This document shows, piece after piece, positions 11,236-58,569 of a stretch of DNA of 64,000 nucleotides; position 1 is the first letter of the stretch; every line of letters begins with the position of its first letter. The stretch is taken from NCBI GenBank assembly GCA_963783375.1, contig CAWANH010000028.1:1976327-2040326 (forward strand), given 5' to 3'. The notes under the pieces were generated by a model. That model was not told the origin of the DNA. It was given only the letters and a program-made list of their open reading frames with translations, and made no database searches. This DNA comes from Candidatus Eiseniibacteriota bacterium (GTDB lineage: Bacteria > Eisenbacteria > RBG-16-71-46 > JABDJR01). A program made the position numbers and the translations under genes.

Positions 11236-12045
11236 ATGAAACGGATCAGCTACACGAAGGGGATTCTTACGGTGGCGATGGCGGCGATCCTGGCCCTGGG
11301 GATCGTCTCGGTAGTCGCCGCGGCGACACCCAACCCGAACAGCGCGGTGCTGCTGGAGCGGGTCTTCAACGACTGCCCCGCCTCCGCTCTGACCTCGCTC
11401 AACAACTACCCGGCCGAGGTTTCGTTCGAAGACGTCGGAAGCGGCTGCTTCGGTTACGCCAACCTGCATTGCTGGCGCTTCTCCGAGGACGGAAGCACCC
11501 CGGCGGAGTTCGAGAACGGTTCCTCGTTCGAGTTCTCCGCGGACCTCGTGATCACCGGCGACGGCGCAGCCGAGGCGGGCCTCCAGGTCCGTCCGTGGTG
11601 GTCGGAGTCGGACGGACGCTTCAACTGCCGGACCACCGACGGCGAGATCGCCTGCTTCGGCGGCCGCCTGCCCTTCTACAGCTTCACCGCCTCCGACGGG
11701 TTGGTCTACGTGAAGGGCGACACCATCCACCTGGCGATCAACTATCAGCCGCACTGCCTGACCAGCGGCTGCCCGGCCGAGATCACCTACAGCCTGGTCT
11801 ACGGCGGGATGTCCTACTCGAGCGGCCCCCTGGCCTTCGACGAGGGGAACCCGGCCGAGGATCCTCCCCACGGTCTCTGGGGCATGCTGTCCCCGGCCTA
11901 CGTGGGCGGGCACGACCAGATCTTCTGGCAGACCGGCGGCCCGGACAGCGCGGTCAAGGTGCAGTGGTTGAACATCACGTTCGCGGAGCAGCCCGTTCCG
12001 ACCGAGCCCACCACCTGGGGCAAGGTCAAGAACCTGTACAACTAG
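11236..12045 (+). CDS. Secreted Cys-containing hypothetical protein with C-terminal TWGxxKxxY motif
   Basis: AAGGAGG RBS, signal peptide, ends VPTEPTTWGKVKNLYN. Confidence 0.8.
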   Translation: MKRISYTKGILTVAMAAILALGIVSVVAAATPNPNSAVLLERVFNDCPASALTSLNNYPAEVSFEDVGSGCFGYANLHCWRFSEDGSTPAEFENGSSFEFSADLVITGDGAAEAGLQVRPWWSESDGRFNCRTTDGEIACFGGRLPFYSFTASDGLVYVKGDTIHLAINYQPHCLTSGCPAEITYSLVYGGMSYSSGPLAFDEGNPAEDPPHGLWGMLSPAYVGGHDQIFWQTGGPDSAVKVQWLNITFAEQPVPTEPTTWGKVKNLYN

Positions 12046-12066
12046 CACCGAGTTCGATTCGCTTTG

Positions 12067-12105
12067 GGGCCGTCTCCGGTATTCCGGAGGCGGCCCTCTC
12101 TCTTT
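12067..12105 (+). terminator. Putative intrinsic terminator
   Basis: GGGCCGTCTCCGG-TATT-CCGGAGGCGGCCC hairpin followed by TCTCTCTTT, just after the 12045 stop. Confidence 0.6.
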
Positions 12106-12266
12106 GGGGGAGAATTTCCGGCCGCGGTTCGGGGTGGGGGACCCGGGGCCGCTCGGTTCCCTCCCCGCCACCCGCCGCCAGCTTCCCCGGTTCAACAACC
12201 CCGCCGCTTCGCGTAGAATCCCCGAAACGAACGTCGTTCCGTCACCTCGTCACGCGGGAGTCACCC

Positions 12267-13250
12267 ATGAGCCGTATTCTCGACACGATCCTCCTCACCG
12301 CCCTTCCCGCCTCGGGGAAGTCCGAGGTCCGCCGCTACCTGGACCGGCTGGACGCCCGGGCGGTGGCCGGAGATTTTCACATGGGCCCGATCGTCCAGCT
12401 CGACGATTACCCCTACGTGCACCTGATGCGTCGGATCTCCCAGGAGATGCGGGACGCCGGCGCCGCCCCCCTCTTCTTTCCGTCCAACGACCAGCCTTTC
12501 TCCGAGCCCAAGGACTGGGGCACCCTGATCGAGCTGGTGAACGAGGACTATCGGGACCTCCACGAACGGCCGAAGATCGAGCCGGCGTCCGCGGCGGAGT
12601 GGCTGTTCGACCGCTTCGACGCCGCCCGCTCCCGGGTGGGCGCCGACCCCGCCCTGGGCAAGCTTCCCGCGACCCTCCGGGCGCGGCTGGCCGCCGCCCT
12701 GGAGAACGAGGCGAGGGAACTCCTCGCCGAGAAGCTCGGGGGCATCCCGGAGAGCCTCGAGGGGCGGACCATCGTGATCGAGTTCGCGCGCGGGGGTCCC
12801 CAGGGGTCGTCTCTGCCCCTCGCCCCCCCCTACGGCTACGCCTACAGCTTCTCCCGCCTCTCCGACGAGATCCTGGAGAGCGCCGCCGTGCTCTACATCT
12901 GGGTCACCCCCGAGGAGTCCCGTCGGAAGAACGAGGAGCGGGCGAAGCCGGGCCCGGAGGGGGACGCCTCGATCCTCCACCACGGGGTGCCCATCGCGGT
13001 GATGCTGGGGGACTACGGCACCGACGACATGGGCTGGCTCATCGAGCAGAGCGACCGGCCGGACACCGTCCGGGTGGAGACCCGGGGAAAGACCTTCCAT
13101 CTGCCGGTGGCGCGGTTCGACAATCGGACCGACCTCACCACCTTCGTCCGGGAGGATCCCGCCGGCTGGCCCGAGGCCTCGGTGAAAGCCATCCACGCCG
13201 AGCTTCGGCGGGCCTTCGCCAAGCTGGCCGGGGTGGCGAGGAACGGCTGA
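12267..13250 (+). CDS. Hypothetical P-loop NTPase/kinase-like protein
   Basis: GGGAG RBS and ATG 12267. N-terminal Walker A-like ILLTALPASGKSE. Later IVIEFARG and VLYIWV strands as in nucleoside-kinase-like folds. Confidence 0.7.
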   Translation: MSRILDTILLTALPASGKSEVRRYLDRLDARAVAGDFHMGPIVQLDDYPYVHLMRRISQEMRDAGAAPLFFPSNDQPFSEPKDWGTLIELVNEDYRDLHERPKIEPASAAEWLFDRFDAARSRVGADPALGKLPATLRARLAAALENEARELLAEKLGGIPESLEGRTIVIEFARGGPQGSSLPLAPPYGYAYSFSRLSDEILESAAVLYIWVTPEESRRKNEERAKPGPEGDASILHHGVPIAVMLGDYGTDDMGWLIEQSDRPDTVRVETRGKTFHLPVARFDNRTDLTTFVREDPAGWPEASVKAIHAELRRAFAKLAGVARNG

Positions 13251-13480
13251 GCCGCCGGCCGGCGCCCGCCTCCTCCCGGTTCCGGATACCGGATAGGACC
13301 GGTCGGCTTTGAGATTTCCAAGCTTCGTCATGGACAGGTCGGGCTTCCGTTTCGGTCCCGAGGGGCGTAGGCTCGAAAGATAGCCGACGAGCGGCGCGAT
13401 TGTTTATCCCCCCTGGCCGTGTTTGGCGCGCCGAATCGAGGATTGTGGCGGCCGGGGCTTTCTTTTCAATCGAGGCGGTC

Positions 13481-14953: not shown

Positions 14954-14958
14954 ACGGA

Positions 14959-15594
14959 TCAGGGCGCCGCCGGGGCGGTGGTCCCCGGGATCCGCCGACC
15001 CGCCTCGAAGGCGCGGCGGTTGACGTCGCGGAACCGCTCGGGGAAGCGCCCGTCCAGGGCTTCGGTCCACGCGCGCTCGCCCAGGGGGAGGAGCGCGGAG
15101 AGAACCCCCAGGAGCACGACGTTGGCCGCCCGCTTCTCGCCCAGCTCCACCGCCAGAGTCAGGGCCGGAACGGAGAGCACCCGGAACCCGTGCCCGGAGA
15201 GGAACCCGGCCACGTCCTCCGGGTAGGCGTTCTCGGCCGCACCCGGCATCCGGATGGGCTTCACCGCCTGGTCGTTGAGGACGATCGCGCCCCCGGGCTT
15301 CAGGCCGTGGGCGTAGCGGAGCGCCTCCAGGCGCTCCATCGCGTAGAGCACGTCGGCGGTTCCGGAGCGGATGAGGGGGGAGTGGACCCGGGGTCCGAAC
15401 CGGACGTGGCTCACCACGCTCCCTCCCCGCTGCGCGACCCCGTGAACCTCGGATTGCTTGGCCTCGAGCCCCTCGCCCAGGGCGGCCAGGGCCAGCACCT
15501 CGCTGGCCAGGAGCACCCCCTGTCCCCCCACTCCGGCCATGAGGACGTTGACCGCGATCCCAACCGCCGGGGAGACCCCGGTACCGGCACTCAC
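14959..15594 (-). CDS. iorB: Indolepyruvate:ferredoxin oxidoreductase subunit beta
   Basis: GVGGQGVLLAS, SEVHGVAQRGGSV, ANVVLLG. GTG start overlaps the iorA stop. Confidence 0.88.
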   Translation of the reverse strand: MSAGTGVSPAVGIAVNVLMAGVGGQGVLLASEVLALAALGEGLEAKQSEVHGVAQRGGSVVSHVRFGPRVHSPLIRSGTADVLYAMERLEALRYAHGLKPGGAIVLNDQAVKPIRMPGAAENAYPEDVAGFLSGHGFRVLSVPALTLAVELGEKRAANVVLLGVLSALLPLGERAWTEALDGRFPERFRDVNRRAFEAGRRIPGTTAPAAP

Positions 15595-17351: not shown

Positions 17352-17357
17352 GGCCGC

Positions 17358-18638: not shown

Positions 18639-18659
18639 CTCTCTCCTCTCCTCGTGGAA

Positions 18660-24526: not shown

Positions 24527-27500
24527 TCAGCTCTTGATCCGCAGGTTCTCGTAGCGGACGTTGGGGGTGGCGAAGGAAAGGGTGAGGCCCTGGATCTCCG
24601 GCCGGGCGAACCGGGAGACGGTCAGATGGAAGAGCGGCACCAGGAGCGCCTCCCGGGCCACGTGCTCCTCGATCTCGCGGTAGCGGGCGTGCCGGGCGGC
24701 GGGGTCGATCTCCACCTGCGCCCGCTCGATCAGCTTGTCCAGTTCGGGTGAACCGCAGTACTTGGCCGCCCAGCCCTCCCGGGAATCCAGGATCCCCCCC
24801 ACCAGGGCGTGGGGGTCGGGATAGTCGGCCACCCACGCGCCCAGGGTGATGTCCGAACCTCCACTGCTCTGGATACGGTTGAAGTCGTCCCGATCACCGA
24901 TCCCGTCGAAAGTAAGCCGGAAGCCGGCCGACCGGAGATCGGCGACCAACCGCTCGATGACCGAGCGGCGGGTTTCCCTCCAGCTCGGGATGACGCACCC
25001 GGTGAGCGCGACCTCCGCCTGGGTCCGGTCGGTGTCCGCGACCGCCCCCGCCGCGGAGGCGGCCAGCCCCGGGCTGTGCCCCAGGAGACCGGGGGGGATC
25101 ATCCCGGTGGCCAGGACCGGGGCGGCGCCGGTCATCTGGGCCACGATGGTGGCCCGGTTGACCGCGTCCACCAGGCGGCGGCGGAGCGCCGGATCCCGCA
25201 GGGGCCCCCGGTGGGTGTTGAGGGCAAGGATGGCGGTGGAGATCCCGGGAATCTCGCGGTAGCCTCCGGCGAACTCGCTGCTCCGGCGGAGGTCCTCGGT
25301 CATCTCGGGCAGGAGGTTGTAGGCCAGGCTGAAGCGGCCCTTGCGGAACCCGGCGTAGAGATCCTCGGCGGAAGGGGTGCTTTCGAACACCAGCTCCTCG
25401 CTTCGCGGATAGCCTTCCCGCCAGTAGCCGGGATTCCGCTCCAGATGGCACCGCTCCCCGGGAACGAACTGCGTGAGCCGGAACGGACCGGTGCCCACGC
25501 ACCCGTCCCGGTGGCGCCGGGCGGCGAAATCGATCCCCTCGGGCACCACCGAGAAGGCGGTGTGGGAGAGCACGGCGGGGAAGTAGGGCACCGCACTCTC
25601 CAGGTGAATGGAGAACTCGCCGGCGGAGTGGATCTGGAACCCCTCCAGCTCCCCGGTCTCGCCGCGGATCAGCGCCGCCGCCCCGCGGACCGGAGACAGC
25701 GCCCAGCGGAACTCGCAGGCCTCGGTGGAGAGCGCCCGCTCCAGGCTGAACCGCACGTCCCGCACGGTGATCCGCCGGCCGTCGTGGAAACGGATGCCGT
25801 CCCGGAGCCGGATCCGATAGCGCTTCCCCCCGTCCTCCACGTCGATCCGGGAGGCCAGCCAGGGAATGATGCGGGCCCCCTCGTCGAGCCGGGTGAGGGT
25901 CTCGAACAGGGTCGACTGGACCTCGGCCTCGTCCACGTGGCTGGAGAGGAGCGGATCGAGGCTCCGGGTCACGGTCCCCATGATCGGGATCCGGATCGTC
26001 CCCTTTCCCACGGTGGCCGGCCCGCCCCCCGCGGTTTCCTCCTCCGCCTTCCCGAGCTTCCGGTAGTTGACGTAGGGGGGGCTGGTCTTGAGCTTCAGGC
26101 CCCGAACCTTGGGTCCGGGGATCCGGTAGTTGGTCTCGTGGAAGAGGGGAAGGAGCGCGCCCTCCTCCTCCAGCAGCCCTTCGAAGCGCCGGTAGAGGGC
26201 GACCCGCGACTCCGGACGGACCTCGGTCCGGGCCTGGTTCAGGAGGTCGTCGCACCGGGGGGAGGAGAAGAGCTTCCGGTACCGGCCGGTCTCGGAGTTG
26301 AAGAGCAGGTAGGTGAGGGCGTCGGGGTCGTCGTAGTCGCTGATGTAGCCCAGGGCCACGAAATCGATGCCGGTCGGATCGACGAGCTTCTCGTCGTAGG
26401 TCTCCTGGGTGGGCGTGACCACCTCGACCTCGACCCCCGCCCCGGCCCACGCGGCGAAGATGGCCCGGAGGAGGACGCCGTGGCGGTCCACCGTGGCCGG
26501 GGAGAGGGCGGCGGTGAGCTTGATCGGTCCGGCGAGCCCGGTCGCGGCGACCCGCCCGGCGGCCTCCTCCGCCCCGATCACCCGCCGCCGGCGTCCGGGA
26601 TCGTGGCCCAGGAGACCGGGGGGGATGAGCCCGGTGGCCGGCTCGGCCAGACGCCCCTTGGCGTTCCAGACCAGGTCGCGGACGCGGACCGACCCCAGGA
26701 GCGCGCGCCGGAGATCGGCGTTCCCGGCCAGCGGGCCGGAGACCACGTTCATCAGCAGGAAGAAGGTGCTCTTTCCGGGGACCTCTTCCAGGCGGCCCCG
26801 GAAGAGGGGCTCGCGCAGGATCCGCTCGAAGTCCTCGGGGGGAAGGCTTCGGCCCAGGTCGAACTCGCCGCTACGCAATCCCGCCGCGATGGCCGAGGCG
26901 GTGAGCCCGGGCCGGAACTCCAGGGTCTCCAGCCGGGGGGGGCCGTTCCAGTAGTCCTCGTTCCGGGCCAGGACGATCCGGTCGGCCATCTGGGACTCGA
27001 TCCGGAACGGTCCGGTGCCGACGGTGTGCTCTCCCGCCTCCCCCCCTTTCCGGAGGGCCACCCCGGTGCTGGAGTCGGTGAGGAGGGCGGGGTAGATGGG
27101 GAGCGGTTCGGAAAGATGGATCTCCAGACGCTGGGGGGCGGCGGCGACCAGGCCGGAAACCTCGGGCGCGTCCCCGTCCAGGAACTCCCGCACCCCGCGC
27201 AGGATGGAGAAGGCCGACCGGGTATCGTTCTTGCCCAGGCGGATCGTCTCCTCGATGGAGCGTTTGACCCGCTCCGAGGTGAGGGGAGTCCCGTCGTGGA
27301 ATCGAACCCCGTCCCGGAGGGTGAAGGTGAACGACCGGCCGCCCTCGGCCATGGTCCAATCCCGGCAGAGATGGGGGTGGAGCCGGCCTTCGGCGTCGGT
27401 GGTGAGCAGGGTCTCGAACACGTTGGCCGCGATCTCGGCCTGGGCGTCGTAGATGACCAGCCCGGGATCGAAGGTGGAGATCGGGCTCACCAGAGGCACG

Positions 27501-30190
27501 GTGAGCCGGCCGCCGGCCGGGATCTCCTCGACGGGTTTGCGGGCCTCGCTCCCCGGGCGGAGCCGCTCCATCTCCTGGAGGTACTCGTTGGCCTTGGCGT
27601 AGTCGGCGCGGAGGTTGGCCAGGGTGGCGGCCAGGGAGAGGAACTCGGCCAGACGCGCGGTGTCGCCGAGAGCCCGGGCCGCGGTCATGCCGCGCTCCAC
27701 CCACACCGTGGTGTCCTCGGCCCGGCGAGCCTGCCAGGCCATCTCCGCGGCCTGAAGGATCGACTCCACCGCGCGCTCGCTCTTTCCGGTGCGCTCGAAG
27801 ACGGCCGCCGCGGCCTCGGTTTCCCGGAGCCCCTCGGCCACGTCCCCCCGCATCTGGTGGGCCCGGGCCAGGAGCATGCGCGCCTCCGCCTCCAGAGACC
27901 GGTCCCCCTCCCACTCCTCGTCCAGGAACTCGAGGGCGGTGCCGGCGGCGCGCTGGGTCTCCTCGGGGCTGAAGGCCTCCAGGGAACGGCGGGCGTGGAG
28001 CAGACCGTACTCCACCGTCTTCTCCGGCTCGTCCCCTTCGGCGAAGTGATAGACGAGCTGGGGATAGACCCGCTCCAGGCGCCCGGTGTGCTTCTCCTCC
28101 AGGAGCTGGGCGTACTTCCGGTGGAGGGAGCGGCGTTTCCGCCGGGAGAGCTTGGCGTAGAGCACCTCGCGCACCACGCCGCTGGTGAAGGCCATGACGT
28201 CGCCCCGGGAGCGGCGGTCCTCCTCGATCAACCCTTCCCGGACCAGCCGGTCGATCACGTCGTCCAGGTCGTCGTCGGCGCCGAGAATCGCCTCCAGGTC
28301 GTCCACGTCGAAGGACTTCCCGATCAGGGCGGCGATGGAGAGCACCTGGATCATCTCCTCGGGGAGACCGGTGATCCGTTTCTCCACCGCCTGCTGGATG
28401 GTTTCGGGCAACTCGTCCGAGGCCACGTCCCCCCGGCCCGAGAGCCTCCACGCGCCGGTGGCGTCCTGGACGATGCTCTCGGCGTCGAGCAGGGAGCGCA
28501 CCAGCTCCTTGACGAAGAACGGGTTCCCCTCGCTCCCCTCGTAGAGCTGGTCGGCGAGACGGGGATCGATCTCGTTTCCCCCCAGGAGGGTGGAGAGGAG
28601 CTTCCGGTGCTCGGAGGCGGCCAGCGAGCCCAGGGTGACCGACGCGAACCGCGGGTCTCCCTGGAACGCCTCCAGCATGCGGTTGAGCGGGGTCTTCCGG
28701 GACATCTCCTCCTGGCGGTAGGTGCCCAGGATCAGGGTGGGGGTGGGGCCGAGGCGGCGGACGATGTACTGGAGGGCCTCGACGGAGATTTCCGCCCCGT
28801 GCAGATCCTCCAGGATCAGCACCAGGGGCTTTCCCCCGGCCAGCCGGATCAGGGTCCGGGCCAGAAGCTCGAAGATCTGGTTCTTGTTGTCGAGAGCCCC
28901 CGCGGGCTCCACGGGGCCGGAGCCGCTCACCGACCCCGACGAGCGGACGTCCTCGATCTCGCTCAGCATGGGGAAGAGCGAGATCAGATCCGCGCGCACG
29001 TCGGAGAGATCGACCGTCGCGGAGGAGCTCCCGGTTCCCCGCTGGCGAAAAAAGTCCTGAATCAGCTCACAAAATCCGTGGTATGGAAACGCGCCGTCCT
29101 GTTCCATGAACCGGCCGTGAAGGACGGGGATCTGCTGGGCGCGGGCCAGGTTCTCGATCTCGTCCAGGAGCCGGGTCTTTCCGATGCCCGCCGCCCCCGA
29201 CACCACCGCGAAGTGGCACTCGCCGGTCTTGGCCGCGTTCAGGCGGGTCTGAAGCTCGCGGAGCTCCTTTTCCCGCCCCACGAACGGAGCCAGGGCCGGC
29301 CGGGCGGCGTGGGTGACCTGGGTGACCATGACCGAGAGCAGGCGATCGCTCTCCCGGTGCTGGTCCCGGTAGCGGCGGAGGACCTGGGCCAGGTCCCCCG
29401 CCCGCTGGGGCCGGTCCTCGGGGGCCTTGGCCAGGCAGGCCAGAACCACCGCGTCGAGGTCCTCGTCCAGATCCGGCACCAGGGCGCGGGGGGACTGGGG
29501 GATCTCGTGCACGATGCGGTAAAGGATCGACTGCAGCTCTCCGGAGAACGGGAGGTCTCCGGTGAGGCATTCGAAGAGCACGGTGCCGAGGGAGTAGAGG
29601 TCGGAGCGGCCGTCGACGGTCCGGCCCATGACCTGCTCCGGGCTCATGTAGCCCATGGTCCCCACCAGGACCCCGCTCTTGGTCATCCGGGACATGTTGT
29701 CGTCGCGGGCCAGCCCGAAGTCCATGAGGCGGAAGCGCACGCCGCCCCCCGGCTCGGGGGAGACCATGAGGTTTTCCGGCTTGATGTCCCGGTGATAGAC
29801 CCCGTGGCCGTGGCTGTACTCCAGGGCCTCGGCGGTCTGGATCACCCCGTCGAGGATGTCCTTCAGGGTGAGGGTCTGGGATTTCAGGTGATAGCGAAGG
29901 CTCCGGCCGGTCAGGACCGGCATCACGAAGAAGAGCGATCCCTCGTGCTCGCCGATGTCGTGGATGGGGACGATCGAGGGGTGGTCGAGCCGGGCCACGG
30001 TCTGGGCCTCGACCCGGAACCGCTGCTCCGCCTCGGCCTGGACCAGACCGGGGGAGGTGAGCTTGATGGCCACCTCGCGGTCCAGGAGGGGATCGCGGGC
30101 CTTGTAGACCACGCCCATTCCGCCCCGTCCCAGCTCGGATATCACTTCATAGCGGCCGGCCAGCTTGGTTCCGATCATGGTTTGGATCAC
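24527..30190 (-). CDS. Ser/Thr kinase - STAND/AAA ATPase - TPR-like - two tandem family-5 (DppA/OppA-like) solute-binding domains
   Basis: Kinase motifs GRGGMG, HRDIKPEN, DFG, YMSPE. Walker A GAAGIGKT, Walker B LILEDLH, EGNPFF. Two copies of FETL.../LRDG.RFHDG/GTGPFR/RN..YW. Alternative ATG 30178. Confidence 0.88.
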   Translation of the reverse strand: MIQTMIGTKLAGRYEVISELGRGGMGVVYKARDPLLDREVAIKLTSPGLVQAEAEQRFRVEAQTVARLDHPSIVPIHDIGEHEGSLFFVMPVLTGRSLRYHLKSQTLTLKDILDGVIQTAEALEYSHGHGVYHRDIKPENLMVSPEPGGGVRFRLMDFGLARDDNMSRMTKSGVLVGTMGYMSPEQVMGRTVDGRSDLYSLGTVLFECLTGDLPFSGELQSILYRIVHEIPQSPRALVPDLDEDLDAVVLACLAKAPEDRPQRAGDLAQVLRRYRDQHRESDRLLSVMVTQVTHAARPALAPFVGREKELRELQTRLNAAKTGECHFAVVSGAAGIGKTRLLDEIENLARAQQIPVLHGRFMEQDGAFPYHGFCELIQDFFRQRGTGSSSATVDLSDVRADLISLFPMLSEIEDVRSSGSVSGSGPVEPAGALDNKNQIFELLARTLIRLAGGKPLVLILEDLHGAEISVEALQYIVRRLGPTPTLILGTYRQEEMSRKTPLNRMLEAFQGDPRFASVTLGSLAASEHRKLLSTLLGGNEIDPRLADQLYEGSEGNPFFVKELVRSLLDAESIVQDATGAWRLSGRGDVASDELPETIQQAVEKRITGLPEEMIQVLSIAALIGKSFDVDDLEAILGADDDLDDVIDRLVREGLIEEDRRSRGDVMAFTSGVVREVLYAKLSRRKRRSLHRKYAQLLEEKHTGRLERVYPQLVYHFAEGDEPEKTVEYGLLHARRSLEAFSPEETQRAAGTALEFLDEEWEGDRSLEAEARMLLARAHQMRGDVAEGLRETEAAAAVFERTGKSERAVESILQAAEMAWQARRAEDTTVWVERGMTAARALGDTARLAEFLSLAATLANLRADYAKANEYLQEMERLRPGSEARKPVEEIPAGGRLTVPLVSPISTFDPGLVIYDAQAEIAANVFETLLTTDAEGRLHPHLCRDWTMAEGGRSFTFTLRDGVRFHDGTPLTSERVKRSIEETIRLGKNDTRSAFSILRGVREFLDGDAPEVSGLVAAAPQRLEIHLSEPLPIYPALLTDSSTGVALRKGGEAGEHTVGTGPFRIESQMADRIVLARNEDYWNGPPRLETLEFRPGLTASAIAAGLRSGEFDLGRSLPPEDFERILREPLFRGRLEEVPGKSTFFLLMNVVSGPLAGNADLRRALLGSVRVRDLVWNAKGRLAEPATGLIPPGLLGHDPGRRRRVIGAEEAAGRVAATGLAGPIKLTAALSPATVDRHGVLLRAIFAAWAGAGVEVEVVTPTQETYDEKLVDPTGIDFVALGYISDYDDPDALTYLLFNSETGRYRKLFSSPRCDDLLNQARTEVRPESRVALYRRFEGLLEEEGALLPLFHETNYRIPGPKVRGLKLKTSPPYVNYRKLGKAEEETAGGGPATVGKGTIRIPIMGTVTRSLDPLLSSHVDEAEVQSTLFETLTRLDEGARIIPWLASRIDVEDGGKRYRIRLRDGIRFHDGRRITVRDVRFSLERALSTEACEFRWALSPVRGAAALIRGETGELEGFQIHSAGEFSIHLESAVPYFPAVLSHTAFSVVPEGIDFAARRHRDGCVGTGPFRLTQFVPGERCHLERNPGYWREGYPRSEELVFESTPSAEDLYAGFRKGRFSLAYNLLPEMTEDLRRSSEFAGGYREIPGISTAILALNTHRGPLRDPALRRRLVDAVNRATIVAQMTGAAPVLATGMIPPGLLGHSPGLAASAAGAVADTDRTQAEVALTGCVIPSWRETRRSVIERLVADLRSAGFRLTFDGIGDRDDFNRIQSSGGSDITLGAWVADYPDPHALVGGILDSREGWAAKYCGSPELDKLIERAQVEIDPAARHARYREIEEHVAREALLVPLFHLTVSRFARPEIQGLTLSFATPNVRYENLRIKS

Positions 30191-30394: not shown

Positions 30395-33300
30395 ATGATC
30401 GGCACCAAGCTCGGACCGTACAAGATCACCGAAACCATCGGCGAGGGGGGGATGGCCACGGTTTACCGGGCCTACCAGGCCAGCATGGACCGACACGTGG
30501 CGGTGAAGGTGATCCGGGCCAACATCCTTCACGACCCTTCGCTTCGCGAGCGGTTCCAGCGCGAGGCGCGCCTGATCGCCCGGCTCGAGCATCCCCACCT
30601 GCTACCGGTCTACGACTTCGACGGGGATCACGACCCGCCCTTCATCGTCATGCGGTTCCTGGAGGGGGGCACCTTGAAGCAGATCCTCGATCGGGAGGAA
30701 CTGCCCCGGACCGAGGTCCTCTACATGCTCCGGCAGGTGGCCACCGCCCTGGACTACGCGCACCGCCAGGGAGTGGTGCACCGGGATCTCAAACCCTCCA
30801 ACATCATGATCGACCGCGAGGGGAACGCCTTCGTCACCGACTTCGGGATCGCCCGCGCCGCCGACGGCGGGGAGGACCTGACCGGCACCGGCATCCTGAT
30901 CGGGACCCCGGCCTACATGGCCCCGGAACAGGCCCAGGGGAAGCCGAACGTGGATTCGCGCGCCGACCTCTACGCCCTGGGGGCCATCGTCTACGAGATG
31001 CTGACCGGAAAGCCCCCCTTCGATCACGAGAACAGCATGGGCATCCTGATGGCCCACATCAGCCAGCCCGTGCCCTCGGTGGGCGCGCTCGACCCGTCGC
31101 TTCCCCCGGCGGTGGACGAGGTCGTGGCCAGGGCGATGGCCAAGGACCCGGCCGATCGCTTTCCCACCGCCGACGCCCTGGTCGAGGGCCTGGCCGCCGC
31201 CTTGAGCCTCACCGCCGCGGACGCGCCCCGGCACCTCCAATCGGTGACCGAGATGATCTCGGTGGACCAGCTCGCCGCGTTCCGGGCCCAGATGGACGGC
31301 GGGAAGCAGCCGACCCCGACCGGGAGCACGCCGTCCGAGCAGCAGCGTCAGATGACCTCGGTGTACATGGACGTGACCGAGCTGGCGGAGATCCAGTACG
31401 AATCGGGCGCGGACACCGAAACCGTGCGCGGGCACATGGACCGGCTCTGGGAACGGTTCGCGGGGATCGCCGAGGAGCGGGGCGGGGTGATCCAGAGCCG
31501 CACCGACGAGGTCGGGGTGGCCCTCTGGGGCCGCGACCGGGCCAGCGAGGACGACGCCGAGCGGGCGATCCGGGCCGCGCTCCGCATGCGCGAGGCGGTC
31601 CAGAAGGAAGCCCGGCGCGTCTTCGGCGCCGCCTGGGAGCCCACCGAGGAGAGCCCGCTCCCCTACGCCGCCGGCATCACCACCGGCCCGGTGCTCCTGG
31701 AGCGCGAGGCGGAGACCGGCATCTATTCGGCCCGGGGCGCCTCGATCACCCTGGCCGGACGGTTGCGCGAGGCCGCCCCGGCGGGGAAGGTGCTGGTGGA
31801 CTACGACACCTTCACCCAGGTGCGCGGGATCTTCACCTTCCAGTCCCACGACCCCATCCGGGTGCGCGGGCGGAAGGAGCCCCTGGAGGCGTTCATCGCG
31901 GTCCAGGCCAAGCCCCGGGCCTTCCGCCTCCAGGCCCGGGGGATCGAGGGCGTCGAGACGAGGATGATCGGCCGGGAGATCGAGCTCCGGATCCTCCAGG
32001 AAGCGCTCACCCTGACCCTGGAGGACGGCGAGACCCAGGTGGTGACGGTGGTGGGGGAGGCGGGGATCGGAAAGTCGCGTCTCCTCTACGAGTTCACCAA
32101 CTGGATCGACCTCCTGGACGAGACCCTGTGGCTCTTCCGGGCCCGGGCCACCCAGCCCTCCATGCTCCAGCCCTACTCCCTCACCCGCGACCTCTTCTCC
32201 TTCCGCTTCCAGATCCTGGACTCCGATCCCCTGGAGAGCGTGCACCAGAAGTTCCTCGCCGGGGTGGAAGTCTTCCTGGGCGAGGGAAGCGGGGACAAGG
32301 CCGCCTTCCTGGGGCAGCTGGTGGGGTTCGACTTCTCCGAGTACCCCGCGGTGGCCGCCGCGCTGGAGAACCCCGAGCAGTTCCGGGACACGGCGCTGGG
32401 GTACCTGGGCGAGTTCTTCACCGCGGCTTCGGAATCCAACCCGGTGGTGCTCCAGATCGAGGACATCCACTGGGCCGACGACCGGTCGCTGGACCTCATC
32501 AACCAGCTGGTCCGGGACAACACCCGGCTCCCGCTCTTCGTGATCTGCATGGCCCGGCCCAGTCTCTACGAGCGGCGCCCCCAGTGGGGGGAGGGCCAGC
32601 GCTTCCACGAGCGGGTCCAGCTCGAACCCCTCTCCCAGCTCTCCAGCCGCCGCCTGGTCAAGGAACTCCTGAAGAAGCTTCCCACCGTGCCGGCCGAGTT
32701 GCGGGACCTGGTGGTGGAGCGGGCGGACGGGAACCCGTTCTACATCGAGGAGCTGATCAAGTCCCTCATCGACGACCGGGTGATCCTGAAGGGCGACGAG
32801 GAGTGGTCGGTGGATACCTCGCGCCTGGCCGGGCTCCGGGTGCCTCCCACCCTGACCGGGGTGCTCCAGTCACGGCTCGACACCCTGCCCCCCGTCCTCC
32901 ACCAGCTCCTGCAGCGGGCCTCGGTGGTGGGCCGGATCTTCTGGGACCGCGCGGTGGTGTATTTGAGCCGGGACATGAACCTGAAGGACGACGAGATCGA
33001 GACCATGCTGGAGGAGCTTCGCGAGCGGGAGATGATCCTCCGCCGCGAGCAGTCCTCCTTCGCGGATACGGTGGAGTACGTCTTCCGCCACGCCATCCTC
33101 CGGGACGTGACCTACGAGACCCTGGTTCCCCGCCAGCGCCGCGCCCTCCACGCCCAGACCGCGGAGTGGTTGGTGGAGGCGGGGGGCGAGCGGGCCTCGG
33201 AGTACACGCTCCGGGTGGCCGAACACTACGGCCACGCCGGGGAGCCGGCCAAGGCCGCCGGCCATCTCCAGGATGCGGCCCGGACCGCCGCCGGCCTGGG

Positions 33301-34360
33301 GGCCTACGACGAGGCGATCGCCGTGCTCCGAAAGGCCCTGGAGCTTCTCCAGGGGGAGGAGCATCGTGTGGCCGCGTTCCCGGTGGAGGTCCAGCTCGGG
33401 AGCCTCCTGTCCCAGCGGGGGGGGTTCGCCGAGGGCCGGGAACGGCTCTCCCGGGCCCTGGAGGGGGCGCGGAAGATGGGGGACCGGCCGCTCCAGGCCA
33501 CCGCGCTCGGGGAGCTGGCCCGGCTGTCGCTCTGGACCGACGATCTGGACGCGGCCAAGACCTACCTGAACGAGGCGCTTCCCCTGGTGCGGGAGCTGGA
33601 CGACCGCCCCGCCCTGATGTTCGTCCTCCGGCAGATGGGCAATCTCAACGTCAACGAGCCCGACCGGGCCGAGAGCTACTTCTCCGAAAGCGTCTCGCTG
33701 GCCCGGGAGCTGGGCGATCGCGGCGCCGAGGCCGCGGCGCTGAACGGGCTCGCCATCACCCACGACCTCCGGAACGACTTCGAAGAGAGCATGGAGCGTT
33801 ACCGGGAATCCCTCGAGATCTTCCGGGACCTGGGACAGCCCAAGTGGATGGCCATGGTGGGATCGAACATCGGCGGGGAGTTCACCCGTCGGGGGAAGTT
33901 CGACGAGGCCCGCGAGGCCCTCGATGCGGCGTTCCGGGCGGCCCGTGAATCCCGTGACGATCCCATGACCACCACCGTTCTCCTGGAGCAGGGGCGCCTG
34001 GCGCTGAGGGAAGGTCGGGACGAGGAAGCGGCGGCGCTCCTGGGGAAGTCGCTGGACCTGGCCCTCAAGCTTGGGACCCGGCCGGTGCCGCTTCTCATCT
34101 CCTGCGCCGTGATCCGGGCCCGCGCCGGCCGCCGGGACGAGGCCCTGGCCTGGGTCGGCCTGGCCCGGGCCCAGACCGGCGTCTGGCAGAAGCTCGAGAT
34201 CGACCGGGACATCGCCGAGTGCCTACCCCTGGTTCGCGGCGACCTTGCCGACGAGGCGGTCGAGGCGGCCATGAAGGCGGGCGAGTCGCTGGATCTGGGC
34301 GAGGTGCTGGAGGGGATCCGGCGGGAAGGCATCCTGCCCGGGGGTTCTCAGGGCGCGTAG
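30395..34360 (+). CDS. Ser/Thr kinase - degenerate class III cyclase-like - STAND/AAA ATPase - TPR protein
   Basis: GGGAG RBS and ATG 30395 inside ORF 24809..34360. HRDLKPSN, DFG, YMAPE; EDDAERAIRAAL; GEAGIGKSRL, IEDIHWAD, DGNPFY; C-terminal TPR-like helices. Confidence 0.88.
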   Translation: MIGTKLGPYKITETIGEGGMATVYRAYQASMDRHVAVKVIRANILHDPSLRERFQREARLIARLEHPHLLPVYDFDGDHDPPFIVMRFLEGGTLKQILDREELPRTEVLYMLRQVATALDYAHRQGVVHRDLKPSNIMIDREGNAFVTDFGIARAADGGEDLTGTGILIGTPAYMAPEQAQGKPNVDSRADLYALGAIVYEMLTGKPPFDHENSMGILMAHISQPVPSVGALDPSLPPAVDEVVARAMAKDPADRFPTADALVEGLAAALSLTAADAPRHLQSVTEMISVDQLAAFRAQMDGGKQPTPTGSTPSEQQRQMTSVYMDVTELAEIQYESGADTETVRGHMDRLWERFAGIAEERGGVIQSRTDEVGVALWGRDRASEDDAERAIRAALRMREAVQKEARRVFGAAWEPTEESPLPYAAGITTGPVLLEREAETGIYSARGASITLAGRLREAAPAGKVLVDYDTFTQVRGIFTFQSHDPIRVRGRKEPLEAFIAVQAKPRAFRLQARGIEGVETRMIGREIELRILQEALTLTLEDGETQVVTVVGEAGIGKSRLLYEFTNWIDLLDETLWLFRARATQPSMLQPYSLTRDLFSFRFQILDSDPLESVHQKFLAGVEVFLGEGSGDKAAFLGQLVGFDFSEYPAVAAALENPEQFRDTALGYLGEFFTAASESNPVVLQIEDIHWADDRSLDLINQLVRDNTRLPLFVICMARPSLYERRPQWGEGQRFHERVQLEPLSQLSSRRLVKELLKKLPTVPAELRDLVVERADGNPFYIEELIKSLIDDRVILKGDEEWSVDTSRLAGLRVPPTLTGVLQSRLDTLPPVLHQLLQRASVVGRIFWDRAVVYLSRDMNLKDDEIETMLEELREREMILRREQSSFADTVEYVFRHAILRDVTYETLVPRQRRALHAQTAEWLVEAGGERASEYTLRVAEHYGHAGEPAKAAGHLQDAARTAAGLGAYDEAIAVLRKALELLQGEEHRVAAFPVEVQLGSLLSQRGGFAEGRERLSRALEGARKMGDRPLQATALGELARLSLWTDDLDAAKTYLNEALPLVRELDDRPALMFVLRQMGNLNVNEPDRAESYFSESVSLARELGDRGAEAAALNGLAITHDLRNDFEESMERYRESLEIFRDLGQPKWMAMVGSNIGGEFTRRGKFDEAREALDAAFRAARESRDDPMTTTVLLEQGRLALREGRDEEAAALLGKSLDLALKLGTRPVPLLISCAVIRARAGRRDEALAWVGLARAQTGVWQKLEIDRDIAECLPLVRGDLADEAVEAAMKAGESLDLGEVLEGIRREGILPGGSQGA

Positions 34361-34914
34361 AGCGCCTTGATCCTCCCCCAGGTCACGGGCTCGACCGCGG
34401 TCTGCGGCCGGTCCCGCTCGAAGAGCTCCAGGAGATCGAACCGGCAGGTGCCGTTTCCGATCCGGCGAACGGTGACGGTGTAGGTTCCCGAAACCAGGCA
34501 GCGCACCTCGGACGACTGGACCCAGTCGTATAGAGCCGAGCTTCACCCGACGCCCATCCCGGGAATCGTGGTCACCGTGTCCTCGCACGCGGTCAGCGCG
34601 GGGGGGTCGGGCGCGAACTCGATCGAAAAAGTCCGCCTTTCGCCCACCGCTCCGGCGCTCCGGATCGAGTCCACGAAGCAGAAGCTGTGGGAGAGATCCA
34701 GCCGGAAGCGGACCCACTCCCCCTCCCGGTCGAGCCCGTCCACCGCCAGCCGCTGGGACGCGGCGGAGCAGTTGGTGACGTGGATGCCCGCTCCCCCCCG
34801 GTCGGAATAGTCGATCATGCTCTCCGCCTCGATCCGAACGGTCTCGGACCGGGCGGAGGAGGCGAAAAGCGGCGACAGGAGGGCGATGGTCGCCCCGATC
34901 AGGAACCACCTCAT
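34348..34914 (-). CDS. Candidate secreted selenoprotein (188 aa, Sec124), CBM6/CBM35-like jelly roll, C-terminal TWGxxKxxY motif
   Basis: GGAGG RBS, ATG 34914 and signal peptide. In-frame TGA at 34545-34543 is followed by 64 further sense codons (SSALYDWVQSSEVRCLVSGTYTVTVRRIGNGTCRFDLLELFERDRPQTAVEPVTWGRIKALYAP) to TGA 34350-34348. SECIS-like hairpin directly 3' of the UGA. Confidence 0.75.
34507..34540 (-). promoter_or_regulatory. Putative bacterial SECIS element
   Basis: mRNA UGA-AG-CUCGG-cucuau-ACGACUG-GGUC-CAGUCGU-CCGAG. Perfect 7-bp upper stem, 5-bp lower stem, GGUC loop 20 nt after the UGA. Confidence 0.7.
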
Positions 34915-37452: not shown

Positions 37453-38016
37453 CTAGTAGCGGGACTTGAGGAGCCCCCAGGTGGTGGGCTGGGTGGGCAC
37501 CGCTTCCGTCACGTCGGACTGGACGCGAAGCTCCAGGTTGGCCGGGAGTTCGATGCCGGCGCCGGTCGCCGGATCGAAGAAGTACCCGAGGACGAGCTGC
37601 AAGGTGCCGTCCTCCACGAGAACCGGTAGCCCCGGCGCGGGGTACGAGAGCAGACCGCCGTCGCTATCGGAGGTGAAGTCGAAGACGGCGTTGGCCAGGC
37701 CGCTCGCATCCACCGAGAACTGGACGGTGAGCTTGTCGCTGATCGCTCCGGCGTTGGGATCGCTGGCCGGCTCCACCATGTAGAGCACGCCGGTTCCCTG
37801 GTAGCCGGGAGGGCTCAGGGTGATCCAGCAGGCCTCGACGTGGGCGGTCTCACCGGAAGCGGACGTGCCGATCCCGCACTCGAAATTGTTGTCGTAGGAT
37901 ACGGCGGTCGAATCCGCGGTCTCGACAAAAGCGAGGTAGGCGGCCGAGGCGGTGATCGGGGCCAGGGCCAGGATCAGGAAGGGTAGGACGACCAGGAACG
38001 CGTAGCGCTTGGTCAT
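37453..38016 (-). CDS. Secreted hypothetical protein with C-terminal TWGxxKxxY motif
   Basis: AAGGAG RBS, signal peptide (ASA-A), ends AVPTQPTTWGLLKSRY. Confidence 0.8.
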   Translation of the reverse strand: MTKRYAFLVVLPFLILALAPITASAAYLAFVETADSTAVSYDNNFECGIGTSASGETAHVEACWITLSPPGYQGTGVLYMVEPASDPNAGAISDKLTVQFSVDASGLANAVFDFTSDSDGGLLSYPAPGLPVLVEDGTLQLVLGYFFDPATGAGIELPANLELRVQSDVTEAVPTQPTTWGLLKSRY

Positions 38017-38400: not shown

Positions 38401-39186
38401 CTACGCGGTCTCGGACTCGTCGCTCGTTCCACGCTTCCGCCGCTTGAGGGCCATACCGGCCAGGCCGGCGCCCAGGAGGAGCAGGGTGGTGGGCTCGGGC
38501 ACGGTGGTCTCGAAGTGGATCTTCTGCTGAATCGCGCGATCGAACTCGCCGAAGCTGGAGGCGGTGACCAGGAACGCCCCCGACCCGCCGAGCACGTTGT
38601 TCTGGTAGTAGGTGGCCACGCTGGAGCTGCCTCCCACCACCAGGCCGTTGATCATGTCCACGCCGGCGTTCAGAGCGTTGTCCCGGCCCACGTGGGGGGT
38701 GAGGGCACCGGGGCTATCGTTGTCCACGCCGTCCCCGGATACGTCCATGATCAGCTTGCTCCCCTCGAACCCGTTCTGGGCGAAGAGGGGGGTGCCCCAG
38801 TTCAGGGCGCTCTGGACCGCGGTGTTGTTGCTGAACGGCCGGGCGGCGTTCCCGATCGCGGTGGCGAACGCGTTGGCCGAGGCGGCGTCGGTGAGATGGG
38901 TCCACCCCACGCTCAGGGACTGCTGGTTCGAGCTGGACCAGTAGCCCAGGGCAACGGCGATCCCGCCGGGGCTGTTGATGATGTCCTGCTGGACCGTGGC
39001 GTCCTGGAACGCGGCCACGTAGCCCGACCGCTGGAGGGCGAACTCTCCGGAGTCGATGCTGCCGGAAACGTCCACCAGGAGGAGCAATTCGGTCTGAACG
39101 GGCGTGGCCAAGGCGGCCATGGGGGCCAGGAGGATTCCCAGCGCCGCGGCGGTGATGCCGAGAATAACGGTAGTCTTGAATCTCAT
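38401..39186 (-). CDS. DUF1194 (vWA-like) PEP-CTERM sorting-domain protein
   Basis: Signal peptide; LLLLVDVSGSI MIDAS-like motif; DVSGDG; C-terminal VPEPTTLLLLGAGLAGMALKRRKR. Confidence 0.88.
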   Translation of the reverse strand: MRFKTTVILGITAAALGILLAPMAALATPVQTELLLLVDVSGSIDSGEFALQRSGYVAAFQDATVQQDIINSPGGIAVALGYWSSSNQQSLSVGWTHLTDAASANAFATAIGNAARPFSNNTAVQSALNWGTPLFAQNGFEGSKLIMDVSGDGVDNDSPGALTPHVGRDNALNAGVDMINGLVVGGSSSVATYYQNNVLGGSGAFLVTASSFGEFDRAIQQKIHFETTVPEPTTLLLLGAGLAGMALKRRKRGTSDESETA

Positions 39187-50444: not shown

Positions 50445-50468
50445 TTTCATGGAACCGTTTCCATGAAA
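50445..50468. promoter_or_regulatory. LacI/GalR-type operator-like palindrome
   Basis: TTTCATGGAACC|GTTTCCATGAAA, 24 bp with one mismatched pair and a TGnAAnCGnTTnCA core, in the divergent intergenic region. Confidence 0.6.
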
Positions 50469-52619: not shown

Positions 52620-52628
52620 GCCGCCTGC

Positions 52629-53552: not shown

Positions 53553-53605
53553 TTTCCCTTCACCGGTGACCTAGAATGCGGCGTATTGCACGGGTGCAGT
53601 GGGGG

Positions 53606-54677: not shown

Positions 54678-54687
54678 GGGAGGGGCC

Positions 54688-55974: not shown

Positions 55975-56023
55975 GGACGGGCGCGGGGAGTGGCATGGAC
56001 GGGCCGCGAGGGGTAGGATAGCG

Positions 56024-57752
56024 ATGTCGAAACGGAGCGCGTGGTTCATCTTCGCGGCGGCGCTGATCCTGGCCGGATGCGGGAACGACAAGCCGCCTTC
56101 CCGGCCGGGCGAGGTGTTCAACCCGGTCACGATCGAGTTCATGAGCCAGTGGGGGGACGCCCCGTCCGGGGTGTTCCGCCGCGTCGAGGACCTGGCCCTG
56201 GACGCGACCGGGAACCTCTACCTGGCCGACAACGGCCTGGACCGGATCCAGAAGCTCGGGCCGGGCGGCGATCCGCTCGGGGTCTGGTACCGATCGGCCC
56301 GCGCCTCCCTCGGTGACGCCCCCCGGATCGACGTCGGTCCCGACGGGCGGGTGATACCTGAGCACGCTCCGCCAGATTCTTCGCTACGCCGCCGACGGCG
56401 GGTCCGAGACCGAGATCTACACGTCGCCACCGGGGATCCTGATCCTCGACGTGGTGGTGGGGCCGGAGGGGAACCTCTGGATCCTGACCTCCGGGGGCGA
56501 GAGCGAGCTGATCGAGCTCGACTCCGAGGGCGGGGAGCTTCAGCGGTGGACGGTCGCCCCGTCGGCGCTCTCGGCCGCCAGCAGCCGGATCGGCCTGGAC
56601 GGGGACGGGCTCGTCTACCTGCTCAAGGCTCCCCAGCCCCACGTCACGGTCTTCGGGGCGAGCGGGTCGGTCCTGGCCTCGTGGAACCTCCCGCCGACCG
56701 AGTTCACCGGAAAGATGTCCCTGGCGGTCAGCCCCGGGGGGACGATCTTCGTCCACGACAGCCGGAACAGCCGGGTCCTTAAGTACGCGTCCGACGGGGA
56801 GCTCCTGGCCGAGTGGCCCTACTCGCGGGACGAGCACCCCTGGCACGAGTCGATCGCCCTGGACGGCGGGGGACGGCCGTATCTCTACGACGCGGTCGCG
56901 GGGGCGGTGGACCGGCTGGACCCGGAGACCGGGGCGCCGGCGCGGATCGCCGCGAGCCTGGACGTGCCGTATCTCTTCTCCCCCGGCTCGATCGCGGTCG
57001 ACGGCGCGGGGCGGGTGATCGTCCAGGACTCCGGGGGGATCAAGGTCTTCCAGCGCGACGGGACGCCCATCCGGACGATCCCGGTGAGCTGGAGGCTCAT
57101 GGGGTATGACCGCGCCGGGGAGAGAATCGTGGGGCGGAGTTCCGACCCCGAGCGGCGGCTGCAGGCGGTGGACGTGGAGGGGAACCTGCTCCTGGACGTG
57201 GCGGCCCCGGGAAGCGGCTGCGACGTGGTGAAGGGGCCGGCGGTGGACAGCCGGGGGGTCATCTACATCGCGGTGGCGAGCTGTCTGGGGATCGCCCGGT
57301 ACGACGCGGCGGGCCGGGCGCTGGGCGCCTGGTACTACGGGCCGGACACGTCGTATCCGATGGCGCCGTGGGCGCTGGGGGTGGACGCCGAGGACCGGTT
57401 GCTGGTCCTCTCCCGGGGCCGCGGGGAGATCGTGAAGATCGCGAGCGACGGCCGGCGGGTGGGGGCGATCCCGCTCGAGCTGCCGCCGGAGGCGCACGGG
57501 ATCGACTCCTACGGGGACATCGCGGTGGACGCGGCCGGCCGGGTGTACCTGGTCGAGGCCACGATCGACCGGGTCCAGGTCTACGGCCCCGACGGGGGCC
57601 TCTTGGCGACCTGGGGGGGGTCGGGGGTCGGGGCCGGGCAGTTCCGCTATCCCCAGGGCATCACCGTCACCCCCGAGGGCACGGTGCTGGTCGCCGACCA
57701 GCAGAACCGGCGGGTGCAGGAGTTCCGGGTGACGGAGGTGGGGGGAGAGTAG
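56024..57752 (+). CDS. NHL-repeat beta-propeller lipoprotein (one-base frameshift at about 56354)
   Basis: Lipobox ILAGC. Repeats DLALDATGNLYLAD, IAVDGAGRVIV, QFRYPQGITV...RRVQEF. Deleting A56354 joins the two ORFs (DGRVYLSTLRQILRY). Confidence 0.75.
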
Positions 57753-57876
57753 CGACAGGGATCAGCCCGGCGGCATTCGTACTCTTCCACCTTCCGGGGA
57801 GCGGCTTGCCGCCGGCCCGAGATTCCTTCGGACCGGCGGCAACCGGGCTCCTCAAGCTACGGAAGAGTACCTAGCG

Positions 57877-58569
57877 CTACTCAGCCCCATAGAGCGCCTT
57901 GATCGAACCCCACGTCGCGGGAATGGTCGGGGTGACGCAGTGATCGAACTCCAGCAACACGTCGTCGAAGTAGGCCGGACTGCCGCCGGCGGTGGAGTTG
58001 ACCAGGAACACCTGAGCCAGGATCCACTGCGTGTCGGCAGGGATCTGAACGCAATCCAGAGACACCTGCTCCCAGGTATCCGAATCGGTGTCGAGCACGA
58101 TGAAGGTGTTGATCAGCAGGGTCTCGGTGGGCCAGCCATTCGCGCTGTTGTAGGTTCTGATGTCCACCCCCACCGTCACCCCCGGCGCCGTGGCGCAGGT
58201 GTTGGCCCACGCGCTGAGGTTCACCGTGGTGGGGGGCCCGGACGAGACGTCGACCGCCTGCCAGGCCTGGCTGTAGGACCCCCCCCCCGTCCCGAGGCTG
58301 AGCAGGTAGGGATTGCTCCGCGGCGCGGTGCCGCAGGTGGTGGTGCTGTCGATGGAAGCGTCCTCGGCGCCCCAGAAGCCGGCTTGGAAGGGAGGGCCAA
58401 CGACGGTGCCGAAATTGCCCACCACTCCGGTCGGACCGGAATCGAAGCCGGGGTTCACGAGTTGCGCGCCGGCTACGCCGGTCATCCCCAGGAGGACCGA
58501 CAGGACGAGGGGAACCATGAGCCACGTGGCGGGTACGCGCCGGAGCGGAGGACGGGAAGCCAATCGCAT
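57877..58569 (-). CDS. Secreted CBM4/9-like hypothetical protein with C-terminal TWGxxKxxY motif
   Basis: Signal peptide (AGA-Q), LVNPGFD start, AYFDDVLL end strand, ends VTPTIPATWGSIKALYGAE. Start uncertain (ATG 58569 or GTG 58590). Confidence 0.75.
   Translation of the reverse strand: MRLASRPPLRRVPATWLMVPLVLSVLLGMTGVAGAQLVNPGFDSGPTGVVGNFGTVVGPPFQAGFWGAEDASIDSTTTCGTAPRSNPYLLSLGTGGGSYSQAWQAVDVSSGPPTTVNLSAWANTCATAPGVTVGVDIRTYNSANGWPTETLLINTFIVLDTDSDTWEQVSLDCVQIPADTQWILAQVFLVNSTAGGSPAYFDDVLLEFDHCVTPTIPATWGSIKALYGAE

Follow-up and report, generated by a model that had tools for sequence, protein, structure and literature searches.

The bacterial sorting signals described so far rely, to our knowledge, either on a membrane helix or on a domain with a fold of its own. 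Dockerin–cohesin pairs and similar non-covalent surface docking modules are portable and can stand at either end of a protein, and in Braun's lipoprotein a C-terminal Lys is cross-linked to peptidoglycan by an L,D-transpeptidase. PEP-CTERM and VPLPA-CTERM signals (TIGR02595, TIGR03370) begin with a VPx-type stretch, and the type A C-terminal domain (CTD; TIGR04183, PF18962, PF13860) of the T9SS, or type IX secretion system (SprA, PorV, PorU), is a C-terminal module on unrelated Sec-exported proteins. PMC12618676 describes type A CTDs as seven-strand sandwiches of ~100 residues.

The peptide analysed here, from a 64,000-nt stretch of Eisenbacteria DNA (the window) and the genome around it, resembles the type A CTD in its placement on unrelated Sec-exported proteins, in the similar linker ahead of it and in sharing genomes and protein bodies with it. 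It differs in being a 17-residue helical motif with no folded sandwich and no CTD model match, in occurring also at N-termini, and in its smaller cargo (median length 224 aa, versus 710 aa for T9SS CTD proteins). With the PEP-CTERM and VPLPA-CTERM signals it shares the VPx-type start, a Trp in the VPLPA register and interchangeability on one body family, but it has no transmembrane helix, basic cluster or model match. Like a dockerin it is portable at either end, and the end of one homologous body resembles, by eye, a dockerin repeat, whereas the tail itself is a single short peptide without a repeat and has only a candidate receptor.

Four exported proteins of the window share a C-terminal TWG tail

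A search of all six frames of the window with [TS]WGxxKxx[YF] returned four matches only, the same C-terminal peptides that a preliminary description of this DNA had picked out, each lying 0–3 residues from its stop codon (4/4); no tail of this pattern arose in 100 codon shuffles of the window. The tails close an exported protein of 269 aa that belongs to no known family (11236..12045, + strand; tail PVPTEPTTWGKVKNLYN at 11992–12045), a 188-aa exported protein with one UGA read through as a likely selenocysteine (34348..34914, − strand; tail 34348–34404), an exported protein of 187 aa, likewise outside any known family (37453..38016, − strand; tail 37453–37503) and a ~230-aa exported protein with a weak NTTRR-F1 match (E 0.025; 57877..58569, − strand; tail 57877–57936). 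Once leader and tail were trimmed, the four bodies showed no mutual similarity (best E 2.4), in agreement with the earlier view that they are unrelated. All four are exported proteins, as that description had it, but it missed that in the 34348 gene tail and signal peptide are connected only if a UGA in the reading frame is read through. The window also encodes two proteins with a T9SS type A CTD and without TWG (253..2145 and 9347..10966, both + strand), the latter immediately upstream of the 11236 gene, a PorV/PorQ family barrel (8248..9255, + strand) and, immediately upstream of the 37453 gene, a DUF1194 protein bearing a genuine PEP-CTERM signal (38401..39186, − strand).

The tail is widespread in the genome and the phylum

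Across the genome, the tail was present on ~67 distinct genes, a set that leaves out 4 of 75 loose matches without the linker and 4 contig duplicates. The module comprises 17 residues, a Pro/Thr linker P[VT]P[VT]ExT followed by TWGx[ILV]KxxY, and the sequence ends 8–10 residues past the Trp in 54/67 tails. Among strict genome-wide matches the Trp lay at most 21 residues from a stop in 54/56, and called genes held 67 terminal matches versus 2 internal ones, so the motif is not equally common internally. Signal peptides, called with an in-house heuristic rather than SignalP, were assigned to 55/65 tail genes, compared with 57/90 T9SS-CTD genes and 865/3518 others. The tail-bearing bodies sorted into 48 BLAST groups, and the four window proteins are not full-length paralogues; 15/65 tail genes adjoin another tail gene as tandem paralogues. 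Named folds carrying the tail include X25, LTD, cohesin-like, cupredoxin, Big_5, fn3 and beta-helix, alongside unnamed ones; it was also seen on three lipoproteins and on one membrane-anchored protein behind an ECF-sigma-like gene, and in one gene of this genome the motif directly follows the signal peptide. The pattern was matched in all 121 genomes sampled from the phylum, at 1 to 95 tails per genome.

When a profile scan left the Lys position free, Lys occupied it in 71/72 terminal hits and Arg in none, Arg being three times commoner than Lys here. The absence of a transmembrane segment was borne out (0/67 tails with a 17-mer hydropathy of at least 1.6), whereas the proposed amphipathic helix was not: the hydrophobic moment was 0.35, versus 0.37 for shuffled tails. 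Module swapping was evident on shared bodies: within this genome they carry either TWG or a T9SS CTD, and in other genomes TWG alternates with ends of VPLPA type or with a dockerin-like end. Scans of 46 proteins and of 34 tails showed the tail to lie outside every Pfam and NCBIfam model, a PDB sequence search gave no match, and searches of the open-access literature gave no paper on it; searches with the motif strings returned only unrelated splicing papers. No processing enzyme was seen to recur beside tail genes in neighbourhoods inspected by eye. Piggy-backing on neighbouring CTD genes was not convincing (8/65 tail genes adjacent versus 36/465 other signal-peptide genes), and the low-copy family f5, considered as a natural knock-out, was set aside since it keeps SprA (22/26), lipoprotein 1 of the barrel module described below (20/26) and real tails.

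One Patescibacteria clade carries the motif behind signal peptides

The tag also occurs in one clade of the Patescibacteria, very small bacteria with a dependent way of life (19/51 genomes of the clade), in whose tag-bearing members Omp85 was not found. The motif stood right behind the signal peptide in 8/27 inspected genes of the clade, and some of its copies there precede M23, C39 and CHAP enzymes; among 13 scanned proteins with N-terminal or internal copies, nine were M23, C39 or CHAP/NlpC enzymes. Among Patescibacteria at large the tag was not above chance (11/301; control, 7 matches). One of the Patescibacteria copies shares 64% identity with a gene of the Eisenbacteria genome. A contamination origin is unlikely, given contigs of up to 823 kb and housekeeping neighbours whose identity to this genome does not exceed 51%, an argument that may be weaker for small contigs. 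Omp85 was likewise not found in genome G147 (1.1 Mb), Gammaproteobacteria by record label alone.

A barrel and two lipoproteins are candidates for the receptor

A conserved module combines a predicted 28-strand, plug-less outer-membrane barrel with a pair of NTF2-fold lipoproteins; the first lipoprotein (lipoprotein 1) ends in a built-in TWGxLR helix resembling the tail. Lipoprotein 1 was present in 110/121 and 40/41 genomes of two phyla, with the barrel gene upstream in 20/20 and 20/20 loci and a [TS]WG ending in 12/22 and 14/20 orthologues, respectively. The W-motif was found in 81/150 lipoprotein 1 representatives, some of which end in WGEIKGLFR or WGQIKGTYR; at the position of the tail's Lys, Arg is commoner than Lys (56 versus 25), and the copy in this genome is degenerate (TLGSLH). 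In the structural model, helix 164–174 sits on an NTF2 fold, with a pLDDT of 94 over the block dropping to 60 at the end, and profile comparison of tail and lipoprotein gave 31% probability over 11 columns. A fold search with the barrel gave nothing more specific than large barrels of a generic kind (TM no higher than 0.43), and its Atlas match had low recognition value. The module is kept while the tail count varies from 1 to 95 per genome. Because SprA (114/121 genomes) is as universal as lipoprotein 1, co-occurrence cannot choose the receptor.

The 34348 gene probably encodes a secreted selenoprotein

From stop to stop, the frame that holds the 34348 tail spans 64 codons and is joined to the signal peptide only by the UGA at codon 124 (34543..34545, − strand), and the gene therefore has a TWG tail only if this conserved UGA is selenocysteine. 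Among 20 distinct genes of the family, the same alignment column holds UGA in 18, Cys in one paralogue and a deletion in one. A 7-bp hairpin (34512..34529, − strand; −8.8 kcal/mol), with its GGUC loop 20 nt past the UGA, fits the bacterial SECIS (bSECIS) model, as do 151/2398 ordinary TGA stops, and the 56-nt fold has a z of only −1.05. The genome encodes tRNA-Sec and SelA; SelA was found in 16/17 other carriers of the family and in 13/13 comparators. These features are those of known bacterial selenoproteins with bSECIS elements, from which the 34348 protein differs in its signal peptide, its TWG tail and the lack of a Pfam or NCBIfam match. No entry among the 119 selenoprotein families tabulated in a review (PMC13188914) was recognisable by name as this one. 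The gene likely represents an unlisted secreted selenoprotein family. Gene callers cut such genes at the UGA.

Discussion

The TWG peptide is a motif of mostly terminal position, spread over unrelated bodies and found at either end of the protein. The preliminary description proposed an export, cleavage or docking tag; a portable envelope tag is what our data support, and of the three functions docking fits best. A cleavage or export signal bound to the C-terminus agrees less well with the peptide's additional placement right behind signal peptides and with its occurrence in genomes in which Omp85 was not found, and the Patescibacteria copies directly after the signal peptide favour position-tolerant docking over C-terminal cleavage. 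We give about even chances to the tail being a portable module on exported proteins, docked uncleaved by a specific envelope receptor. The ending of most copies 8–10 residues past the Trp also fits a machine that reads the C-terminus.

A serious but doubtful alternative is that the tail serves as a minimal signal for type IX secretion, with PorV-family shuttles or SprA as its readers and a PorU-like protease cutting in the linker. The setting is suitable: tail genes have signal peptides, and the genome encodes SprA, PorV-family barrels, 96 CTD matches and a PorU-like protein (377 bits, below the cut-off of 420); GldM was not found, in a search that gave no signal on any control either. Tail and CTD proteins have bodies in common, and the linker likeness claimed earlier stands as a loose one, a TGV/TAV-type linker preceding 50/96 CTDs versus 8/94 control positions. 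Against this reading, none of the 96 CTD proteins of this genome has the TWG motif, a junction pattern matched 31 times in 121 genomes led into a CTD in 0/15 inspected cases, the tail matches neither TIGR04183 nor a ~100-residue Ig-like CTD, N-terminal copies exist, and some carriers lack SprA or Omp85 matches. The tail was thus not found as a junction ahead of a T9SS CTD in this phylum.

Binding to peptidoglycan, or cross-linking of the tail's Lys to it through an L,D-transpeptidase, would not depend on an outer membrane and would suit both the near-invariant Lys of this genome and the nine wall-active enzymes among the 13 N-terminal or internal carriers, such enzymes being usual carriers of wall-binding modules. 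It is nonetheless improbable, as the Lys is not the terminal residue and is replaced by Arg in 6/17 tails of the selenoprotein family, the cargo resembles surface cargo with T9SS or exosortase ends elsewhere, and the tag is at chance level in Patescibacteria at large. We consider it very improbable that the tail merely seeks membranes as a helix of generic type, or that it is a relic without function spread by gene duplication and transfer: tandem paralogy and the 64%-identical Patescibacteria copy point that way, but the hydrophobic moment does not exceed that of shuffled tails, and W, G/S, K and Y/F are fixed over 48 groups and several phyla, with repeated placement at N-termini. Hardly credible is a VPLPA/PEP-CTERM signal stripped of its membrane helix and still cut by exosortase. 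A same-body homologue does have the Trp in VPxPAAxW register, and exosortase A and EpsI are encoded; the tails, however, lack a membrane helix and basic cluster, none of 34 matches a CTERM model even with E allowed to reach 1, and the exosortase already has four ordinary PEP-CTERM targets.

If docking is correct, the helix would, after Sec export, expose its Trp, Lys and Tyr (i, i+4, i+7) for recognition by a receptor, which may retain small proteins in folded form at the outer membrane or route them across it. The barrel with its two lipoproteins is the best candidate for the source and reader of the tag, a candidacy that bears about half of the docking explanation's weight; the built-in TWGxLR helix of lipoprotein 1 would then be the ancestral form. 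Patescibacteria might reuse the tag, aiming cell-wall enzymes at hosts with such a receptor. The full proposal is rather unlikely to hold as a whole. In it, a docking or transport machine of the outer membrane not described before (the 28-strand barrel and two NTF2-fold lipoproteins) would recognise TWG as its address peptide and serve tens of proteins in each genome across several uncultured phyla; one Patescibacteria lineage would have acquired the peptide from hosts of this kind and put it ahead of its peptidoglycan hydrolases as a means of getting to the host wall.

New here are the observation that the TWG tail was not found ahead of a T9SS domain in this phylum (0/96), the tail-like helix in a lipoprotein encoded behind a barrel, the tag in a Patescibacteria clade and the likely selenoprotein. 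The tag is a bare peptide that occurs at either protein end. With as many as 95 marked genes in a single genome, it defines much of the exported proteome of Eisenbacteria and of uncultured phyla close to them. Docking would give an orphan giant barrel a candidate function and Patescibacteria hydrolases a possible route past the host outer membrane. If the full proposal is true, the tag would also name the hosts of that Patescibacteria lineage, so that host range, long a puzzle in these bacteria, could be predicted at the level of sequence.

A terminal motif on exported proteins

The TWG tail, a short peptide that ends four exported proteins of the window (genes at 11236, 34348, 37453 and 57877), is real, widespread and uncatalogued. 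The preliminary description had placed these peptides on unrelated bodies, and both points held: the four peptides were recovered at the stated positions as the sole six-frame matches in the window, none arose in 100 codon shuffles, and the best pairwise comparison of bodies gave an E value of 2.4. Across the 4.7-Mb genome (G000), 54 of 56 strict matches lay at most 21 residues before a stop. Relaxing the pattern raised the yield to 75 ORFs, which BLAST sorted into 48 groups; removal of four without the linker and four contig duplicates left 67 tail genes. These counts are approximate: frame changes, probably assembly errors, interrupt a number of tail genes as well as SprA (G000 C29:766899-771106, C3:207433-208362 and C28:705416-708056). 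The consensus of the 67 tails reads P[VT]P[VT]ExT-[TS]W[GS]x[ILV]Kxx[YF], and the chain ends 8-10 residues past the Trp in 54 of them.

Within called genes the motif was terminal 67 times and internal twice. By a heuristic of our own, a signal peptide was recognised in 55 of the 65 tail genes that had been called, compared with 57 of 90 genes with a T9SS type A C-terminal domain (CTD) and 865 of 3518 others. The tail proteins had no transmembrane helix in their last 40 residues, as described; the amphipathic character ascribed to the tail helix was not borne out, since it was no more amphipathic than its own shuffles. Few bodies were named by Pfam, no Pfam match covered the tail itself among the tail proteins scanned, and the NCBIfam sorting models matched none of 34 tails. 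A literature string search for the motif returned no relevant paper, and the portion of PMC3909097 that notes CTDs in Poribacteria leaves the TWG motif unmentioned.

Elsewhere in the window, a gene whose product joins a Ser/Thr kinase to ABC-type substrate-binding domains (24527-30190, minus strand) faces a kinase-TPR gene at about 30395-34360. The stretch 59133-63444, poorly resolved by codon-model gene calling, holds a 272-aa ORF (60125-60943) that may resemble an AbiEii-type nucleotidyltransferase.

An exchangeable envelope module

Within the genome, the same bodies end in either a TWG tail or a CTD, and for one body the two homologues found carried, instead of TWG, a dockerin-like end or a signal resembling VPLPA, which scored 21.7 bits against a cut-off of 25.35. 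Because bodies swap end modules, the tail behaves as one among several exchangeable envelope modules; it lacks the defining features of the T9SS CTD and CTERM families, yet is used alike.

We give an even chance to the tail docking, as a helix, on a specific envelope receptor. That it is instead a T9SS mini-signal seems rather unlikely. In favour of that reading, T9SS outer-membrane parts were found in the genome, SprA occurs in 114 of 121 genomes, and the linkers preceding CTDs do resemble the tail linker, as had been proposed, if loosely; against it, the motif lay inside none of the genome's 96 CTD proteins. A role in wall binding or Lys cross-linking is improbable; the consensus Lys speaks for it, and the Arg that replaces this Lys in 6 of 17 tails of the 34348 gene's family speaks against it. 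There is slighter probability still in a generic or relic ending, given the shuffles, and the least in an exosortase signal, which we regard as very improbable even with the sub-threshold VPLPA-like end on a homologue. For the window's phylum the tail as a junction before a CTD was rejected, as a junction pattern gave 31 matches over 121 genomes and none of the 15 inspected continued into a CTD. A PEP-CTERM gene (window 38401-39186, minus strand), one of only four in the genome, adjoins a tail gene.

For the docking helix, the first receptor candidate, and also a candidate origin of the tail, would be a trio conserved in two phyla, comprising a predicted barrel and two lipoproteins. Three tail genes are lipoproteins closing a cluster of ksgA-like gene, barrel, lipoprotein 1 and lipoprotein 2. 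Searches detected lipoprotein 1 in 110 of the 121 genomes from the window's phylum and in 40 of 41 from the other; the barrel precedes it at every one of the 40 loci retrieved. Its C-terminus reads [TS]WGxL[RK] in 12 of the 22 orthologues examined from the first phylum and 14 of the 20 from the second, and such a motif is terminal in 81 of the best 150 representatives, 25 with Lys; some end almost like the free tail. In the predicted structure of one orthologue (mean pLDDT 91), which has an NTF2-like fold, the motif forms a terminal helix. Lipoprotein 2 is a paralogue of lipoprotein 1 (probability 99%) and often stops short of the helix. Against this candidate count the profile match of tail to lipoprotein, at 31% probability, the degenerate lipoprotein 1 of genome G000 and the equally wide spread of SprA. 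The barrel is predicted to have 28 strands by our own count and no plug, and a fold search gave no close match among solved structures. At G000:C28:943432-948916, a predicted 28-strand plug-less barrel is followed by five NTF2-fold lipoproteins.

At another locus (G000:C29:136560-153235), PorU-like and PorV genes are followed by an M6/FG-GAP CTD protein and two unnamed 265-269 aa proteins, alongside a 1125-aa protein with a weak SprA match and an Omp85 piece; these are other possible tail readers. At G000:C28:1952951-1953898, the tail ends an N-terminally membrane-anchored protein encoded behind a gene that looks ECF-sigma-like by eye. This protein may act as an anti-sigma factor that senses the tail receptor.

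A candidate secreted selenoprotein

The tail gene at window 34348-34914 (minus strand) runs signal peptide, 123 codons, in-frame UGA, 64 codons and tail, and all three database matches to its protein are 123 aa long, ending at the UGA. Of the 121 genomes, 18 have homologues, and 20 of the 22 matches contain one TGA. When 20 distinct genes were aligned, the UGA fell in the same column in 18 of them; at that position one gene has Cys and another a deletion. Nearly all homologues have a hairpin 3' of the UGA. The window hairpin, whose stretch encodes the conserved residues DWVQS, fits the model of the bacterial Sec hairpin (bSECIS), as do 151 of 2398 ordinary TGA stops. The tRNA-Sec and SelA are present. 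Sec incorporation at this UGA is highly probable, and the redox partner of the Sec residue may be a conserved Cys around position 49. The protein had no Pfam or NCBIfam match, and comparison by name with section 7 (parts 1 and 2) of PMC13188914 gave no matching entry. The gene likely represents a new secreted selenoprotein family, truncated at the UGA in databases.

Range and N-terminal copies

A GTDB scan gave at least 124 loci with the motif, their titles mostly Eisenbacteria, Krumholzibacteria, Latescibacteria or unnamed bacteria, and a stop lay at most 15 residues away in 116 of the 124 listed. Among the 121 genomes sampled in the window's phylum, none lacked a match; copies ranged from 1 to 95 per genome (reversed control, 0 to 3), with as few as 1 to 5 in one family.

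The motif also tolerates other positions. In one G000 gene, encoding an unnamed 223-aa protein (G000:C28:1279421-1280092), it directly follows the signal peptide; a similar gene occurs in genome G020. Two 1.1-Mb genomes (G189 and G147) gave 7 and 6 matches, several N-terminal, and no Omp85, SprA or lipoprotein matches. G189 is assigned to the Patescibacteria by its sources; together with 50 relatives (0.6-1.3 Mb), 19 of 51 genomes matched, with 36 matches versus 2 in the control, and Omp85 was found in none of the 51. Across Patescibacteria at large, 11 of 301 matched (control, 7). The motif was C-terminal in 18 of 27 clade genes inspected, behind the signal peptide in eight and internal in one; 13 scanned carriers of N-terminal or internal copies comprised five M23, three C39 (one slightly under cut-off), one CHAP/NlpC and four unnamed proteins.

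These tail genes, some of them close in sequence to G000 genes, lie on contigs of up to 823 kb amid housekeeping genes. Horizontal transfer is their likely source, because one tail gene is 64% identical to genome G000 and neighbouring housekeeping genes at most 51%. We infer that this Patescibacteria clade may live on tail-bearing hosts.
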